Assembly (NCBI GenBank): GCA_051117555.1
Contig: JBNPEG010000086.1
Coordinates: forward strand, 1-64,000
Source of the DNA: Elainellaceae cyanobacterium
GTDB taxonomy: Bacteria > Cyanobacteriota > Cyanobacteriia > CAZCXK01
Reading direction: 5' to 3'
Length of the DNA stretch: 64,000 bases
The notes below the pieces were generated by a model that saw only the letters and a list, made by a program, of their open reading frames with translations, made no database searches and was not told the DNA's origin. The position numbers were made by a program, and so were the translations under genes. Numbering within the stretch: the stretch's first letter is position 1; each line of letters starts with the position of its first letter. Below are positions 9,416 through 19,247 of the stretch, one piece after another.

Positions 9416-11737
9416 CTACTCGATGCGCTGTACGGCAACTCGCAAGCCATTATTAATCAGCATTCGAGCCGTTTCATTTGCATTATTGAGGTCGTTGAAT
9501 GCTCCTGCTTGCATCACAGCTTGACCATTCACGTAGGTATAAAACGCTCCAGGCACCAGCGATTGAACGAGCCTCTGTATCCGTTCATTACGGGCATCAA
9601 CTACGACTCGATACCGCGATCTCAATCGAGTCGACCGATTAGGCGACGATCCAGCGGAGGTTCTTTGCCGCACTGGATCGCTGTAGATGGTCACGGTCGG
9701 CAAACTGCCAGTATAGCCTCGAGGAATCTCCCCCCCAGGAACAGGTAACGCATTTGAGTGACGAGGTGGCGATGACCGGGGTTGAAGCAGGGTTCTCAGT
9801 AGGTTTCTAGGTGGAGAACTGGGTTGTTGAGCGGATGGTGATGACTGAGCGGATGCCAGTGCAGACGCTAGCTGATTGACCGGGCTGGCTTGGCCATCAT
9901 TCTCGTCGGACAAATCAGCCACAGTCCCACGCATGGGCGGCGGCACAGGGATCTCAATAGGCGCTGTGAAATTTGCTACGGGGCGGGCAGAACGGGACGG
10001 GGCAGACTGCGCATCTGAATTCAAGCGCGGCGTAGTCGAACGGTCTGCGATCGCCCGTTGCGGTGAGGGGGAGGACTCGGTAACTGCGGATATCACAGCA
10101 GGTGCAGGCGGCGGCGGTGCGGGCGGCGTCGATGTCGGGACGGATGGAGGCGGTACAAACATGTCAATCGACGGAATTCGTTGAGGTGACGGTGTTGCGG
10201 CCGCTCCAGTATCCGTTGGGCGAGGAAATGATGCTGCCGTTCGAGAGGATGCGGGTCGAGAGGACGCTGTCGGAGATGGCACCGTTGATAAGGAGGCAGA
10301 TGATGAGGAGGCAGATGATGAGGAGGCAGATGATGAGGAGGCAGATGATGAGGAGGCAGATGATAAGGAGGCAGATGATAAGGACTGGCGACTCGTTGGG
10401 TGAGCGGCGATCGCCTGAGATGAGGGCTCGCCTTGATGAGGGTGCATCGATGACGCGGAGGACGACTCCTCGCCAGATGACGAACGGGCTGGCGCCTCCG
10501 ATGATGTAGGCAATACTGGCAATGATGAGGACAACGAATTCTCGGAGGAGGATGAATCGGGGCGTAAGTCAGCAGCAACGCGGCGTGGAGCTGCAATTGG
10601 GATCGGCACATTGCCGGTCACATCAACCGCTCCGGTCATGCGTGCGTCCGTCAGGTCATTGCCGAACGCAGGAACTGGGTGTTCGGCTGCTTCAACATTG
10701 AGATCGTAGCGAGTATTGTTTTGAAACTGATTATTGCCTGGATGATCAGGCGTTCCGAGATTAGGCACTGCTTGGGCGATCGCCACGATTCCGTCTCGAT
10801 GGCTCCCGTCTATAACGTTATGTCGCAGCACCGGACGGGCATGCCCCTGAATAACAATGCCATCTCGATTATTGAGTAAACGATTCTCAATCAGGTGAGG
10901 CGCAGCATTCTGACTCACATTAATGCCAAACCCGGTTTGTTCAAAGACGTTTTCTCGGACGACGGCTTGCCCCGACCCAAACACGGTGATGCCGTTCGCG
11001 CCATTCTGACGAAACAGATTATCTTGCACAATAGGCGAACTGTCGCCGTTGACCGACACCCCATCATGGATATTGTTGCTAAATGTGTTGCGAGCAACAG
11101 TTGGGCTACTTGACTCAATCCACAATCCGTAGCCTCGGGCGTTTGGGTTCCTGACCGTCACCCCTGTCAACGTAGCATCGTCAGCTCCCAGAATGGCGAT
11201 ATTTTGACCCGCAACGGTGGGGCTGAGAAATCGCCCTCCTCCTCGGATCAGAATGCCGTCTCCGTGAGTGCTTGGATTTCCCTGAATGATGACTCCAGGC
11301 TTCATCCTCAACGGGAATTGTTCGCCTGACTCGGCACTATAGGTTCCCGGTGCAAGCATAATGACCGTTCCAGGTTGAGAGCGCTCCAGTGCTTGAGTGA
11401 TCGTTCTAAAGGGCGATCGCTGGCTGCCATCGCCCTGGGTGTCATGACCCACAATTGGATTGACAAAGAATAATGTCGTCGAGGTGGCGGGTGGCGTATA
11501 CGATCGACGCGCCTGAGATGATGAGATGGGTAATGTTGTTTGGGCGATCGCCCCCGTTTGACTCGTTAATGAAACGACGACTGCAAGCCCAAGCCCAGCA
11601 GCCAGGAGTATCTGAGGTGAAACAGTTACTCGTCTGCCGCCCCGACCCACGTCAGAACATTCGTTTCTTCTTCTAAGTAAATCGTAGGAATATTGCAACA
11701 CCATAATGTCCCTCATCTCACTGGATGCCCTAAACAA
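9416..11737 (-). CDS. DUF1565 / parallel beta-helix domain protein with S/P-rich linker and SPOR-like C-terminus (start codon uncertain)
   Basis: FVNP..G.D...G....PFRTITQAL...LAPGTYS...GE.FP motif; beta-helix repeats; MQAGAF C-terminal motif. Confidence 0.85.
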   Translation of the reverse strand: MFRASSEMRDIMVLQYSYDLLRRRNECSDVGRGGRRVTVSPQILLAAGLGLAVVVSLTSQTGAIAQTTLPISSSQARRSYTPPATSTTLFFVNPIVGHDTQGDGSQRSPFRTITQALERSQPGTVIMLAPGTYSAESGEQFPLRMKPGVIIQGNPSTHGDGILIRGGGRFLSPTVAGQNIAILGADDATLTGVTVRNPNARGYGLWIESSSPTVARNTFSNNIHDGVSVNGDSSPIVQDNLFRQNGANGITVFGSGQAVVRENVFEQTGFGINVSQNAAPHLIENRLLNNRDGIVIQGHARPVLRHNVIDGSHRDGIVAIAQAVPNLGTPDHPGNNQFQNNTRYDLNVEAAEHPVPAFGNDLTDARMTGAVDVTGNVPIPIAAPRRVAADLRPDSSSSENSLSSSLPVLPTSSEAPARSSSGEESSSASSMHPHQGEPSSQAIAAHPTSRQSLSSASLSSASSSSASSSSASSSSASSSSASLSTVPSPTASSRPASSRTAASFPRPTDTGAAATPSPQRIPSIDMFVPPPSVPTSTPPAPPPPAPAVISAVTESSPSPQRAIADRSTTPRLNSDAQSAPSRSARPVANFTAPIEIPVPPPMRGTVADLSDENDGQASPVNQLASALASAQSSPSAQQPSSPPRNLLRTLLQPRSSPPRHSNALPVPGGEIPRGYTGSLPTVTIYSDPVRQRTSAGSSPNRSTRLRSRYRVVVDARNERIQRLVQSLVPGAFYTYVNGQAVMQAGAFNDLNNANETARMLINNGLRVAVQRIE
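10287..10384. repeat. In-frame 15-bp tandem repeat, 6 full units plus a partial, encoding (S/L)SSAS
   Basis: Unit GAT(A/G)AGGAGGCAGAT. Confidence 0.95.
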
Positions 11738-13145: not shown

Positions 13146-15029
13146 CTAAATCTGCGGAACGTACTGATCCTTCTCCGGAACAGGAGTGTATTCGGCGACA
13201 ATCTGGCGAAATTCTTCACCATCAATTGTTTCTTTCTCGATGAGCAAGTCTACTAAGCGGTCGATCGCCGCGCGATTCTCCCGAACAACCCGACGCGCTT
13301 CGTCGTAGCAGTGCTCGACAATAGAACGCACCTGAGCATCAATTCGAGACGCGATTTCATCTGAATACTCTGAGCGAGTCATCAGGTCACGCCCTAAGAA
13401 TACCTCACTCTGCTGGCTTTCTAGAGAAATGGGACCCAGATCAGACATTCCAAACCGCGTCACCATCTGACGAGCCATGCCAGTCACTTGCTGGAGGTCA
13501 TTACCTGCCCCTGTGGTCACTTCGGCATCCCCAAAGATGACCTGCTCAGCGGCGCGACCTCCGAGTGCTCCAGTAATTCGAGCCATCAGCTGAGAGCGAG
13601 AAATCAAGCCCTGCTCCTCATTCGGGGTAAACCACGTCAAGCCGCGAGCCTGCCCCCTGGGAATGAGCGTCACCTTCTGAACCGGATCGTGATCTTTCAA
13701 CAAGGTGCCGATAATAGCGTGCCCCAGCTCGTGATAAGCAATCAAGCGCTTACTCTTGCTGTCAATGAGCGGAGTGCCTTCCATACCCGCGACAACGCGA
13801 TCTACCGCATCATCGATTTCGAGCATGGTGATTGCTTCTTTGCGTCGGCGAGCTGTTAGAATCGCCGCTTCATTGAGAAGATTTGCTAAATCGGCCCCTG
13901 TAAACCCGGGCGTGCGACGGGCGATCGCATCGAGAGACACTTCAGGTGCTAGCTTCTTATTGCGGGCATGCACCTGCAACACCTCTAAACGCCCTTTAAT
14001 ATCGGGTGGATCAACCATGACCTGACGGTCAAACCGCCCAGGACGAAGTAAGGCTGAATCTAAAACGTCAGGGCGGTTGGTAGCGGCAATAATGATGATG
14101 CCTGTATTGCCTTCAAATCCATCCATTTCGGTGAGCAATTGATTGAGGGTTTGCTCCCGCTCATCGTTGCCGCCTCCAATGCCAGCACCTCGCTGACGCC
14201 CAACCGCATCAATCTCATCAATAAAGATAATGCAAGGCGCATTCTCTTTCGCTTTTTTGAACAGGTCGCGGACGCGGGATGCACCCACACCGACAAACAT
14301 CTCAACAAATTCGGACCCGGAGATGCTGAAGAAAGGAACCCCTGCTTCACCCGCGATCGCTTTCGCTAGCAACGTTTTACCCGTCCCTGGAGGACCAACC
14401 AACAACACGCCTTTCGGAATCCGCGCACCCACTGCCGTAAAACGCTCAGGCTTCTTCAAAAATGAGACGACTTCTTCAAGCTCTTCTTTCGCCTCTTCAA
14501 TGCCAGCCACATCGTCAAACATGACACCCGTTTTAGCCTCCATCTGGAAGCGTGCCCGAGACTTACCAAAGTTCATGGCTTGTCCAGGCCCTCCGGCACC
14601 GGAGCCAGAGCGGCGAAATAGAAAGAATAGTCCGCCAATCAATAAAATAGGGAAAATAAGATTTCCCAATAATCCCCAGATTGCCCCATCATTGCGGGGG
14701 GGATGGGTGTCAAAGTTCACACCGTCTTCTCGCAACCTGGAGATCAGCTCAGGAGCATTACCCGGCAAATCGACTCTTAAGCGACGAACTCGATCATCGA
14801 GCTGGTCAACTGCTTCGACGATAGCGGTCCGCCCGCCATCGTACAAATCAACGCTGGTCACTCGACCCGAATCGAGATATTCCAGAAATCGACCATAGGT
14901 CATCCGACTATTTGCGGTGTTTCCTCCGATATCCATCGCTGAGGACGAAAATGCCCCCTGCCAGAAAAAGAACCCGATGACTAAGACTGGCAATGTCCAG
15001 AGGAGAATCACTCTCCAGGAAAGCTTCAT
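13146..15029 (-). CDS. ftsH: ATP-dependent zinc metalloprotease FtsH (FtsH2 type)
   Basis: [10 protein letters not shown] lumenal domain; [19 protein letters not shown] zinc motif. Confidence 0.97.
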
Positions 15030-15483
15030 AACCCTAAGCGCCTCTAATAACAGCAGTTGAATTAGTTGAATTAAAGTACACGCAGCCTAACACTGCTCAA
15101 CAAGATTTCGTTTCTAATCAACTCTAATCAATCCAGATGTGGCTCAGACTTCTGCGTCATCTTTACTATCGTACGCGGTTAGGAGAATCGACAAGAATTA
15201 ACAAAACCACTATTTCTGAGTGTAAATCTTAATTAAATTTAACGTAACGAGGGCACATCGAGCAACTCAGGAAAGAATTGGATTTTGCCGATGCCTGCTA
15301 AATCGATGCTAGCGCGTCTGATCGCGTTTTGAATGCTGGGAGATATTTGGATTGACATTTCCGCCTATTTTCTCAGAAATTGTAGACAACTTTTAAAGAA
15401 CGCTTGTACTGAAAATCGAGATGTGATAGAACAATTGTATTATCTGGTGGCGTCAGGTTGTGCAGCGAGGTGGCGTCGGCAGC

Positions 15484-16629
15484 ATGAGTACTGATTTGAC
15501 GAGTACTGATTTGACGAGTACTGATTTGACGAGTACTGATTTGAATAGAGGTACAAACCCCATGACTGGCAGGCAATCCTCCAATATTCCAGGTACGGTT
15601 TTGAGCGTCGATTTGGGGCGCACTGCAACAAAAGCTTGTGTGGGTCGCAGTCCTGCTGATGTGGTTCTTATTCCCGCCAATGTCGCTCATCTGACGGTCG
15701 AGCAGGTTCGTAGGGGTGGTTTTGAATCGCAGCCTACCGATCCGCTGCTCGATATTTGGCTAGAGTTTCAGGGCAAAGGCTTTGCGATGGGTCAGCTTGC
15801 AGCAGATTTCGGCGCAAACCTAGGAGTTGGTCAATCGAAGGTTGAAGATGCGTTGGTGAAAGTTTTAGCATCAGCCGGATATTTTGACCTGAAAGGCAGT
15901 ATTGGTGTGGTATTAGGATTGCCATACCATTCTCAGGAGCAGTTTGATCAAGAGAAAGAGCAAGTTATCGGCTTGTTGCGATCGCCCCACGTCATGAACT
16001 ATCGAGGTGAATTTAGGGCGATTGACATTCAGCAAATCTGGGTCATGCCGGAGGGGTATGGAAGCCTCATCTGGTGCGAAGCACACGGAAAGAAGTCTAC
16101 TCCCGATTTTCCCAATTTATCAGTTGGCGTGGTTGATATCGGTCACCAAACGACCGACTTTCTCATGATTGATCGATTTCGATTTGCGCGAGGAGCCTCT
16201 CAGAGCGTGCCCTTTGCAATGAGCCAGTTTTATGAGAATGTAGCCAGCCAGATTCAAGGGGCTGATAGTCAATCATTATCATTAATTGAAGCAGTTCATC
16301 GCCCCGAAGGTGAGAGGTTTTTCCGTCCCAGAGGAACTGCAATTCCAACTAATCTAGACGATATCTTGCCCAGCTTGCGACGAAGTTTTGCCCGCGAACT
16401 GTCTAATCGTCTCGTGTCGTGGTTGCCTGAGCGCGTGACCGATGTTGTTGTCAGCGGCGGCGGCGGTGAGTTCTTCTGGAATGAGCTTCGTCCGCTTTTG
16501 CGCGAAGCCAAGCTTAAAGGGCACCTAGCAAAACCGTCTCGCAAGGCAAACTCGCTGGGGCAGTATATCTACGGTGAGGCGCAAATTGCGATTCTCTCAA
16601 GTCAGCTTGTTGCTAGCAAAAGCGCTTAA
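15484..16629 (+). CDS. parM: Chromosomal ParM/StbA-family actin-like ATPase (CorM type); start either 15484 or 15562
   Basis: Actin-fold motifs VDLGRTATK, GLP, MPEG, VDIGHQTTD, SGGGG and AN..G. Confidence 0.9.
   Translation: MSTDLTSTDLTSTDLTSTDLNRGTNPMTGRQSSNIPGTVLSVDLGRTATKACVGRSPADVVLIPANVAHLTVEQVRRGGFESQPTDPLLDIWLEFQGKGFAMGQLAADFGANLGVGQSKVEDALVKVLASAGYFDLKGSIGVVLGLPYHSQEQFDQEKEQVIGLLRSPHVMNYRGEFRAIDIQQIWVMPEGYGSLIWCEAHGKKSTPDFPNLSVGVVDIGHQTTDFLMIDRFRFARGASQSVPFAMSQFYENVASQIQGADSQSLSLIEAVHRPEGERFFRPRGTAIPTNLDDILPSLRRSFARELSNRLVSWLPERVTDVVVSGGGGEFFWNELRPLLREAKLKGHLAKPSRKANSLGQYIYGEAQIAILSSQLVASKSA
15486..15544 (+). repeat. 4 x 15-bp direct tandem repeat GAGTACTGATTTGAC
   Basis: Three perfect units plus a fourth of 14/15 bp. 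Confidence 0.95.
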
Positions 16630-16679
16630 TCCACAGCGCTTCACTCACGAAATTCATTATCCGCATGAGGGGGGGCTCG

Positions 16680-17168
16680 ATGAGATTGGATGCAGATCAG
16701 TTTAATCATGTCAATTATGATGTGGTCTTTAAGGACTCGGTCACCGATCAAGCCTTGCTAGGAGCTATTGAACGAGCATTGGCAACTCAACCATACGCCA
16801 GTTTCAGCGATTTATGTAAACAAGCCCTGCGGCAGTCGCTTCTAGGGGCTGAAATGTCGTCTACGATGCCCTTATTCCTAGAGTTACAGCGCCAGATTGT
16901 TGATTTGAGAGTCAGTCTGGCAAATCTTGAATATCGGCTGAGTGGCGATCGCCCTTCTCCGAGACATGAAGAGTTAGATCGCCCATTCGATCATCTCGAC
17001 CATCAATTCACACGGCTCTCAAGTCGTTTTGGGGAAGCGCATTCAACGATTCCGTTTAACGAGCGAGAATCGCGGGAATCACCCGAGCCGGAGCGAGTTC
17101 CAGCGACGATATCGAGAGCATCTGACCCCCTTTTAGATCGACTCGCGCCTATCTTGGATGACTTCTGA
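16680..17168 (+). CDS. parR: ParR-like adaptor (CorR type)
   Basis: Directly after parM; RHH-like segment with FSDLCKQAL, a coiled coil, a disordered linker and C-terminal helix DPLLDRLAPILDDF. Confidence 0.7.
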   Translation: MRLDADQFNHVNYDVVFKDSVTDQALLGAIERALATQPYASFSDLCKQALRQSLLGAEMSSTMPLFLELQRQIVDLRVSLANLEYRLSGDRPSPRHEELDRPFDHLDHQFTRLSSRFGEAHSTIPFNERESRESPEPERVPATISRASDPLLDRLAPILDDF

Positions 17169-17205: not shown

Positions 17206-17715
17206 TTAGCGGACTGCTGAAATGCGAATTACGTATGGATGGTAGCTGTTTTCCTGGTATGAGCCGACCCAAATCTCATACGTGCCTGAAAACCACTGGC
17301 CTGCAATTCCGGGATTGACGCCCGAATAGTCGTCATTGCACCAACTCCCGCCTGGTCCGCGAATCACCAGAGTCGTGTCGTCAGGGCTCTGAATTTCGAG
17401 GCTGAGATAGTCAAAGAATTCGGTCAATGTCATCCGGTGATCTGGGGGGCCATCCACGAAGCCAACGCACGATCCAGTGTCGGTTTCGGGGCGACCTGCC
17501 ACAGCGCTGGCAGGCTGCTGCCCTCCACTAATTCCTCTGACTGTGATTGGATCAGGGGTAAAGCTAGGGGTCAGCGTCACATTCTCAAACAGGGTGACCT
17601 CTTGAGAGGGCTGCACAACTTGGGCCTGAGCAAGACGACCTAACCGCGATCCGTTGACCGAAATCACGCTTGCAAGAGTCAGCCCAATCCCAACGATCAG
17701 TGGTTGGATACGCAT
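17206..17715 (-). CDS. Secreted hypothetical protein (PPC-like beta domain)
   Basis: Signal peptide; DTTLVIRGPGG.WCNDD...P.I......G.Y.IWVGS. Confidence 0.75.
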   Translation of the reverse strand: MRIQPLIVGIGLTLASVISVNGSRLGRLAQAQVVQPSQEVTLFENVTLTPSFTPDPITVRGISGGQQPASAVAGRPETDTGSCVGFVDGPPDHRMTLTEFFDYLSLEIQSPDDTTLVIRGPGGSWCNDDYSGVNPGIAGQWFSGTYEIWVGSYQENSYHPYVIRISAVR

Positions 17716-17783: not shown

Positions 17784-19247
17784 TTAGAGCTTTGTTAGAG
17801 CGATCGCCTGCTGAAGTCGGGGCTGATCGTATCCCCGTTGATGCAGCAGCAGCCACGATTGCGCAAGGTCGGGGCCGTGAAGATCTCCGGTTAATGCTGC
17901 CCTGAGCGTCCGCATGACTAGACCTTTCTTCACATTCTTATCTTTTGTGACCCGTTTAATGACCGATTGAGCATCTGACTCAGTATCAAAGGGCGGATTT
18001 TCTTCGAGTAATTCTAAAACCCCTTCTAACACCACGGATGCCCCATCTTGCTGAAGCTGCTGAATTGCGGCCTCTTTTACCTCGATGTCGCGCCTAAATA
18101 AATAATCGCTCATAGGAACAGCATCATCCAAGCGAGTGAGGCTTGCCCCAATGAGTTGGGAAATTTGATTAAGCCAGGGGCGATCGCTCACCGGGTCAAA
18201 CTCAAACCCTGCATCTTGCCAAAACGGAATGAGTAGATCGGTGATTTCATCGGCAGATTTGTGATGAAGATATTGGCTGTTGAGCCAGTTGAGCTTATCC
18301 CAGTCAAATTTTGCTCCGGCCTTATTGACCCGATCGAAGCTAAACTGACTGGCGGCTTCGCTTAGCGAAAACTGTTCTTGAGTAGAGTCGGGGGGCGACC
18401 AACCTAACAGCGTCATGTAGTTGACCATCGCCTCTGGAACGTATCCCATCCGCTGAAAGTCTGAAATGGATGTTACCCCATCCCGTTTTGAAAGCTTTTT
18501 ACCCGACGGGCTGAGAATCAAAGGCGTATGGGCAAACTGAGGGATATCAGAACCTAGCGCCTCATACAGCAAAATCTGCTTAGCGGTATTTGCGATGTGG
18601 TCTTCACCACGAATGATATGAGTGATGGTCATATCCATATCATCGACTACGACCACAAAGTTATACAGCGGTTGCCCAATCTCACCAGCCGGAGCGCGAC
18701 GGGCAATGACCATATCGCCCCCTAAGTCGCTCCCTTTCCAGGTCATCTGCCCGCGCACCATGTCCTTCCATGAGATCACCCGGTCATCATCAATCTTGAA
18801 GCGAATGACCGGCTGCCGCCCTTCTGCTTGAAATGCAGCCTGCTGTTCGGCTGTGAGCTGGCGATGGCGATTATCGTAGCGCGGCGGTTGTCCCTTGGCT
18901 TCATAGGACGCGCGAATGGCTTCAAGCTCGTCTTCTGTGCAATAGCAATAGTAGGCGTGACCCTGATCCAGCAGAGTATTGACCTGTTGCCGATAAAGCT
19001 CGGTTCGTTTGCTTTGAAAGAAGGGTCCCTCATCCCAGGTCAAGCCTAGCCAGGTTAATCCCTCTAGAATATTTTGGGTAAATTCTGGGCGCGATCGCTC
19101 GACATCCGTATCTTCAATTCTCAGGATGAACTGACCTTGATTGTGCCGAGCAAATAACCAATTGAAGACAGCCGTGCGTGCGGTGCCGATATGGAGATTT
19201 CCGGTTGGGCTAGGAGCGATACGAACGCGAACAGTCATAGTGAACAT
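17784..19247 (-). CDS. gltX: Glutamate--tRNA ligase
   Basis: [23 protein letters not shown] and KLSKR motifs. Confidence 0.97.

Follow-up and report, generated by a model that had tools for sequence, protein, structure and literature searches.

A probable chromosomal FcmB/FcmC (CorM/CorR) cytoskeletal module in a thin filamentous cyanobacterium of the Elainellaceae

The stretch of DNA analyzed here (the window) comprises the initial 64 kb of contig C11 (91.7 kb; JBNPEG010000086.1, positions 1 to 64,000) in the 6.06-Mb, 256-contig draft genome of an Elainellaceae cyanobacterium (GCA_051117555.1). It carries an actin-like ATPase gene (fcmB, or corM; 15484..16629, + strand) and, downstream of it, the gene of a small adaptor protein (fcmC, or corR; 16680..17168, + strand), and the two very probably form the cytoskeletal FcmB/FcmC (CorM/CorR) module in the chromosome of a thin filamentous cyanobacterium. 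This reading is carried by family membership, a vertical chromosomal context, the lack of a centromere-like array, purifying selection on both genes, and the conservation and predicted docking of the C-terminal peptide of the adaptor. An earlier note, made from the sequence alone, had proposed an ortholog of the Anabaena CorM/CorR system in a non-heterocystous lineage, and our analysis agrees, with equivalog models recognizing both proteins, the actin matching the CorM structure 9RMI and FcmB grouping with a chromosomal clade. The system was published in 2025 (Nguyen et al., 2025, PMC12645912; Springstein et al., 2025, 10.1101/2025.06.27.661541), so the window pair joins a known and curated family as a new member, and its recognition adds little by itself. 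Its value is comparative, in that strong conservation of CorMR extends to many thin-filament cyanobacteria, although the breadth beyond that given in the preprint may be a difference in taxonomy only.

Nostoc punctiforme loses its rod shape on deletion of fcmB or fcmC, FcmB forming membrane-bound filaments and FcmC membrane-associated foci (Nguyen et al., mSphere 2025, PMC12645912). The same study includes a heat map of FcmBC over 126 cyanobacteria (Fig. S5A). In Anabaena, the CorM filaments are antiparallel and dynamically unstable (structure PDB 9RMI), CorR shows no binding to DNA, and in the mutant the DNA is distributed without defect (Springstein et al., bioRxiv, 10.1101/2025.06.27.661541). 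According to the same preprint, residues 1-10 of CorR, an amphipathic helix, are essential for membrane binding and residues 150-162 bind CorM, while MinC displaces CorR via a helix in an N-terminal extension that is unique to Nostocales. The preprint restricts the CorM clade to Nostocales and Oscillatoriales, and both papers describe common ancestry with ParM and ParR.

The family scan of open reading frames (ORFs) covered about 9.4 to 23 kb of the window. FcmB, with 381 aa from its ATG (an alternative GTG at 15460 would give 389 aa), scored 623.6 bits with NCBIfam NF052678 morpho_FcmB (E 9.8e-188, cut-off 300), and the genome-wide search recovered the same place. The complete actin-fold ATPase announced by the earlier note is borne out by the Pfam domains ALP_N (E 3e-14) and MreB-like_C (E 7e-9), both above their cut-offs, and by intact nucleotide-binding motifs. 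These are SVDLGRTATK, VDIGHQTT and SGGGGEFF, which we take to be the phosphate-1, phosphate-2 and adenosine motifs of actin-fold ATPases, respectively. Residues D43, G45, T47, K50, D218, G220, T223 and G325-328 do not vary among 37 FcmB sequences. Across 36 orthologs FcmB is 56-98% identical with about 90 invariant columns, and in the closest named record, an Elainellaceae metagenome-assembled genome (MAG), it is 99% identical. In the PDB, FcmB matched chain G of 9rmi (CorM of Anabaena) with 505.8 bits and E 5.2e-151, residues 19-369 of the query aligning with residues 26-376 of the chain over 351 residues.

A role in rod shape is also ascribed to MreB, likewise a bacterial actin, and published mutants of the two resemble each other. 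FcmB belongs to another family, however, and the MreB gene of the same genome lies on contig C235 (487.7 bits). A genome-wide search with Pfam MreB_Mbl (PF06723) listed six places, none of them on the window's contig. An MreB encoded elsewhere is shared with Nostoc punctiforme, as are the orientation of the two genes and the passing of both equivalog models. The window organism differs from Nostoc punctiforme in being of the non-heterocystous thin-filament type.

The start of fcmC at 16680, an ATG 50 nt after the fcmB stop, is favored over an alternative in-frame ATG at 16665, which would lengthen the protein from 162 to 167 aa and shorten the gap to 35 nt. The reasons are that GAGGGGGG precedes position 16680, that the ORF of a same-genus locus (L014) starts there, and that it fits the 50 bp given by the earlier note. 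Both genes are co-oriented and the layout is the same in relatives. FcmC scored 108.2 bits with NCBIfam NF052682 morpho_FcmC (E 4.9e-31, cut-off 90), and a phmmer search with FcmC against PDB sequences returned nothing at E <= 1. An AlphaFold2 monomer model (mean predicted local distance difference test, pLDDT, 65) contains helices at residues 21-36, 42-89, 102-120 and 150-159 and disorder over residues 120-147. The model thus bears out the amphipathic C-terminal helix of the earlier note and includes a long helix, and the succession of a conserved N-domain, long helix, disordered linker and short C-terminal helix is the layout of Anabaena CorR.

The conserved N-terminal domain of FcmC (residues 13-50; 16716..16829, + strand) shows in the alignment a strand-like V-x-F, a helix ADQxLL and a helix FSDLCKQAL. 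Nine residues are invariant in 32 orthologs, namely F17, F42, C46, K47, L50, D149, P150, L155 and F162, and R154 and D161 are nearly so. Identity is 93% within the genus, about 52-54% within the family and 27-38% beyond it. FcmC is acidic in all 32 orthologs (isoelectric point, pI, 4.2-5.8; 4.5 for the N-domain of the window protein), which fits the published lack of DNA binding and is a further likeness to the Anabaena pair, along with the two-gene order, the match of the actin to 9RMI and the lack of parC.

The C-terminal peptide of FcmC (residues 149-162, DPLLDRLAPILDDF; 17124..17165, + strand) is a predicted FcmB-binding helix. The motif DPLLxRLxPLL(E/D)DF stands at the C-terminus in 32 of 32 aligned orthologs, no other part of the protein has a hydrophobic moment as high as that of the terminal 11-mer (0.70), and the peptide is homologous to the CorM-binding CorR peptide 150-162 (10.1101/2025.06.27.661541). 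Prediction of a complex, one of the checks suggested by the earlier note, placed the peptide in a pocket of FcmB: residues 36-381 of FcmB with residues 128-162 of FcmC reached a score of 0.71, the best of three controls 0.02. In calibration, 116 of 157 solved complexes attained the mark used for this score, as did 2 of 215 mismatched pairs. Contact agreement of the runs was at least 69%, with a partner pLDDT of at least 55, and the predicted contacts of residues 149-162 are with FcmB residues 154, 158, 186-200, 231-234 and 362-370. Since complexes of the ParM-ParR type have already been solved, the score shows likeness and is no independent proof of binding.

By orthology with Nostoc punctiforme and Anabaena, we posit that FcmB would assemble with ATP into dynamic filaments of the actin type. 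FcmC, as a presumably dimeric, ParR-derived adaptor, would capture FcmB by docking its C-terminal helix into the hydrophobic pocket of the actin, and the two proteins may influence cell shape alongside MreB instead of segregating DNA. Polymerization, association with the membrane and a role in shape would accordingly be expected of the window organism by analogy with its characterized relatives.

The replicon appears to be chromosomal, judging from housekeeping neighbors and conserved synteny in a 256-contig draft. As the earlier note had it, the pair lies among housekeeping genes between ftsH (13146-15029, - strand) and gltX (17784-19247, - strand), with an additional 169-aa ORF before gltX. 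Other genes nearby are tsaE and those of CP12, a FIST protein, a metallophosphoesterase and PspA/IM30, and the GC content of the locus (0.496) is close to that of the genome (0.488). Compared with the same-genus locus L014, the ratio of nonsynonymous to synonymous substitution rates (dN/dS) is 0.035 for fcmB and 0.099 for fcmC, next to 0.064 for gltX and 0.006 for ftsH. Purifying selection acts on both fcmB and fcmC.

All four genomes from the order of the window have FcmB above the cut-off, as do 16 of 41 relatives and 93 of the 401 genomes sampled from the class, of which 131 give some match at E <= 0.001. Among the matches listed, beyond which the class survey holds 37 more, the scores are bimodal: full-length orthologs exceed 500 bits (window 623), with one truncated ortholog at 389.6, and below the cut-off stand full-length ParM-like genes of at most 66 bits and pieces of split or truncated FcmB of up to 198.8 bits. 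The thin-filament records with FcmB belong to the NCBI orders Elainellales, Oculatellales, Leptolyngbyales, Phormidesmidales, Spirulinales, Geitlerinematales and Coleofasciculales.

Where the upstream flank was 2.5 kb or longer, and with duplicates and four plasmid-type loci dropped, 21 of 39 loci, belonging to several families, have a divergent ftsH upstream of fcmB. The window shares this neighbor, unlike the Nostocales-type loci, where the linkage occurred in none of the seven examined. The linkage looks old and may mark the original integration site.

Some FcmB orthologs (L035, L042 and L036) lie on contigs labeled Gloeomargaritaceae, Xenococcaceae and even Thiomargarita, which are MAG labels and possibly mis-binned. 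In a family of small genomes (f20, including L075 and L076; 2.2-3.2 Mb), FcmB is present in eight of eight sampled genomes with about 505-518 bits, and FcmC follows downstream in L075. If any of these carriers is unicellular, this would bear on the proposed link of the system with multicellularity.

In order to place FcmB, a quick maximum-likelihood tree of 83 rows was built with support from the Shimodaira-Hasegawa-like approximate likelihood ratio test (SH-aLRT) only, using 17 rows of plasmid-type ParM and PRTRC-D as outgroup. Partial rows (L013, L045, L047, L050, L053, L055 and L056) and duplicates (L001, L012, L015, L031, L033, L073 and L074) were left out. The window falls into a starred 30-row thin-filament clade of records labeled Oculatellaceae, Leptolyngbyaceae, Phormidesmidales and Elainellaceae, which is nested in a 66-row FcmB clade that long branches part from the 17 plasmid-type rows. 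As these long outgroup branches meet in the tree, the placement within the ingroup alone is trustworthy. The earlier note had named a grouping of the best hits with plasmid-borne ParMs and an absence of the locus in relatives as outcomes that would speak against it; we found FcmB in the chromosomal clade, apart from the plasmid-type rows, and the locus present throughout the sampled genomes of the order.

A number of observations weigh against the identification of the pair, or against a mechanism taken over unchanged from Anabaena. The margin of FcmC over its cut-off is small (18 bits), its 108 bits standing against 236 bits for the Nostocales type. The N-terminal domain is called ribbon-helix-helix (RHH)-like in the literature, and the segment FSDLCKQAL, which the earlier note had likewise singled out as RHH-like, is present with F42, C46, K47 and L50 invariant; the fold itself had no Foldseek match in the PDB at E <= 0.001, with a monomer model that cannot form the dimer strand. 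The start of FcmC, MRLDADQFNHV, has a hydrophobic moment of 0.36, a net charge of -1 and a single aromatic residue, whereas the Nostocales-type start MFQWSKKVVKS has a moment of 0.54, a charge of +3 and both F and W. With either start codon, a cationic N-terminal amphipathic helix was not recognizable in FcmC, the moment serving as a proxy for Amphipaseek, and the other aligned thin-filament orthologs also have polar N-termini that lack an aromatic face. While the earlier note was right about an amphipathic C-terminal helix, the helix with which Anabaena CorR binds the membrane is the N-terminal one, and it is this one that the acidic N-terminus of the window adaptor lacks. Finally, the two published descriptions (PMC12645912; 10.1101/2025.06.27.661541) report no experiment on a member of the thin-filament clade.

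MinC differs from the Anabaena model as well. The MinC of the window genome has 261 aa (open frame 262) and lacks the N-terminal extension of 80-110 residues that holds the CorM-binding helix. Three Nostocales-type MinCs have 340-373 aa and an extension with a conserved SIIPxAELxSVLxYL segment, which is absent from the MinC of the window genome. Separately, the N-terminal segment SAIPQSTLDAIS, which had seemed to align with the beginning of the Nostocales-type helix, was considered as a CorM-binding motif of MinC and rejected, because the match dissolved in a wider alignment and the FcmB-negative genome G019 has a similar one.

From these differences an alternative follows in which the pair is a CorMR ortholog that works unlike that of Anabaena, with an FcmC that has no membrane anchor, filaments that are cytoplasmic or otherwise tethered, no control by MinC, and an earlier stage of domestication. 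We consider this unlikely. Beyond the FcmC start and the short MinC, the C-terminal tail of FcmB (residues 368-381; 16585-16626) is hydrophobic in the thin-filament clade (IAILSSQLVASKSA in the window, others such as MVALINKLAAAQS), in contrast to the polar and basic tail of the Nostocales type (LSASRSSRA). The preprint itself has the CorR helix weakly conserved outside Nostocales and the MinC extension confined to that order (10.1101/2025.06.27.661541). On the other hand, the hydrophobic moment is only a proxy, and Amphipaseek reportedly finds helices in the CorRs of 'Oscillatoriales' (10.1101/2025.06.27.661541). The moment of the window's FcmB tail is low (0.24, against up to 0.51 in the thin-filament clade), and the beginning of the tail forms part of the pocket predicted for FcmC, to which its hydrophobic character could be due. 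Moreover, FcmC is under purifying selection and keeps all family-invariant residues. As a lead only, we note that the hydrophobic FcmB tail has a distribution inverse to that of the N-terminal amphipathic helix of FcmC.

More generally, it is conceivable, if still rather doubtful, that thin-filament lineages run CorMR without the membrane helix of CorR and the CorM-binding helix of MinC, and so represent an earlier stage on the way from plasmid to cytoskeleton. At that stage the system would already be chromosomal, free of parC, linked to ftsH and strongly conserved, and it would be tethered, for example, by the C-terminal tail of FcmB or by a partner protein. If this were true, domestication would predate the membrane-helix and MinC steps, and the system would be wider than 'Nostocales and Oscillatoriales'. 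Should an absence of the CorR helix and the MinC extension hold experimentally, it would order the steps from plasmid partition machine to cytoskeleton. That the known anchoring and regulation are not recognizable here is the sole part of our analysis with some potential for novelty.

A type II ParMRC cassette that integrated and continues to segregate DNA, be it of a plasmid or of the chromosome, is a very improbable reading of the pair. The likeness to the R1-type ParM/ParR/parC system consists in an actin NTPase followed by a small adaptor, as in parM-parR, and a C-terminal helix that is predicted here to enter the hydrophobic pocket, and there is distant homology of FcmB to NCBIfam PRK13917 (ParM; 44.8 bits) and PRTRC protein D (35.4 bits). 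The 44.8 bits are far under the ParM cut-off of 417, however, and the adaptor is acidic down to its N-domain. Upstream of fcmB (15030-15483) a parC-like iteron array was not found, the only repeats there being two-copy ones of 9-15 nt. A tblastn search against 72,556 plasmids (PLSDB) returned 130 records, all below 60% identity; among the best 30 of the 130, four Nostocales plasmids reach 52-56% and the other 26 at most 28%. Together with the housekeeping neighbors, the synteny conserved across families, and the CorR that neither binds DNA nor, in the mutant, disturbs its distribution in Anabaena (10.1101/2025.06.27.661541), this argues for the claim of the earlier note that the pair probably does not segregate a plasmid, its putative function being taken from orthology.

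The same genome has a separate ParM-like gene (L002 1330-2454, - strand; 374 aa) on the 30.6-kb contig C178, with only 29 bits to FcmB, which also counts against a segregating role of the window pair. Downstream of it lies a 168-aa ORF (L002 813-1319, - strand) that had no family match, and the two are probably a plasmid-type ParMR pair kept beside FcmBC.

Four FcmB-like genes of Nostocales plasmids deserve mention in their own right. They are L059 3956-5026 (Nostoc N6 pNPM2), L060 3947-5047 (Trichormus variabilis plasmid A), L061 3941-5047 (Dolichospermum pUHCC0315c) and L068 (G186:C2), which score 562-615 bits with the FcmB model, above its cut-off, and are annotated as ParM/StbA only. An FcmC-like gene was not found downstream of any of the four. 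In the preprint the CorM clade is chromosomal only (10.1101/2025.06.27.661541). The plasmid copies nest inside the Nostocales-type chromosomal clade of the quick tree, on which ground we rejected them as the plasmid ancestor, and this position suggests a secondary escape of FcmB to Nostocales plasmids.

That the pair is a functionless, decaying relic of a plasmid integration is next to impossible, since, for all the fast divergence of FcmC (about 52-54% identity within the family, 27-38% beyond), both frames are intact, the dN/dS values of 0.035 and 0.099 are similar to that of gltX, FcmB is 56-98% identical in 36 orthologs, and the terminal motif of FcmC is invariant.

Returning to the FcmB/FcmC module, the low-complexity N-terminal tail of FcmB comprises 37 aa before LSVDLG, compared with about 10-25 aa in relatives of the clade, and is unrelated in sequence to that of Anabaena CorM. 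Fifteen of its residues come from a perfect 15-nt tandem repeat of 3.9 copies with 100% matches (15486..15544, + strand; Tandem Repeats Finder, TRF), which encodes STDLT four times. The same-genus loci L014 and L012 have one STDLT unit, i.e., three fewer than the window. None of the sequencing runs listed, among which there is no RNA run, contains half or more of the words of the stretch searched. In runs X2 and X4 the contigs jump from 15485 to 15531, leaving out exactly 45 nt, and in the best-matching run X1, where the stretch is covered in pieces, the 45-nt repeat contig has a depth of 12.8 against 2.7-3 in its neighbors, or about fourfold. By sequence comparison, the STDLT expansion is strain-specific. 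In Anabaena the N-terminal tail of the actin modulates polymerization, and the expansion could therefore matter here, or it could be neutral.

The divergent intergenic region between fcmB and ftsH (15030..15483, 454 nt) presumably contains both promoters. Promoter and terminator scans of the locus gave nothing reliable above shuffle expectation, including a single, weak sigma-70-like match at 15416-15443 (+ strand) that does not exceed it.

The 169-aa ORF between fcmC and gltX (17206-17715, - strand) is convergent with fcmC and has a hydrophobic, signal-peptide-like N-terminus. It had no match in Pfam or NCBIfam, is found 3' of fcmC in 11 of 39 loci of relatives with enough downstream flank, and has a dN/dS of 0.088. 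Farther away, a 773-aa protein (9416-11737, - strand) combines an N-terminal part of the DUF1565 / right-handed beta-helix type with a Ser/Pro/Ala-rich low-complexity part carrying SSSAS repeats.

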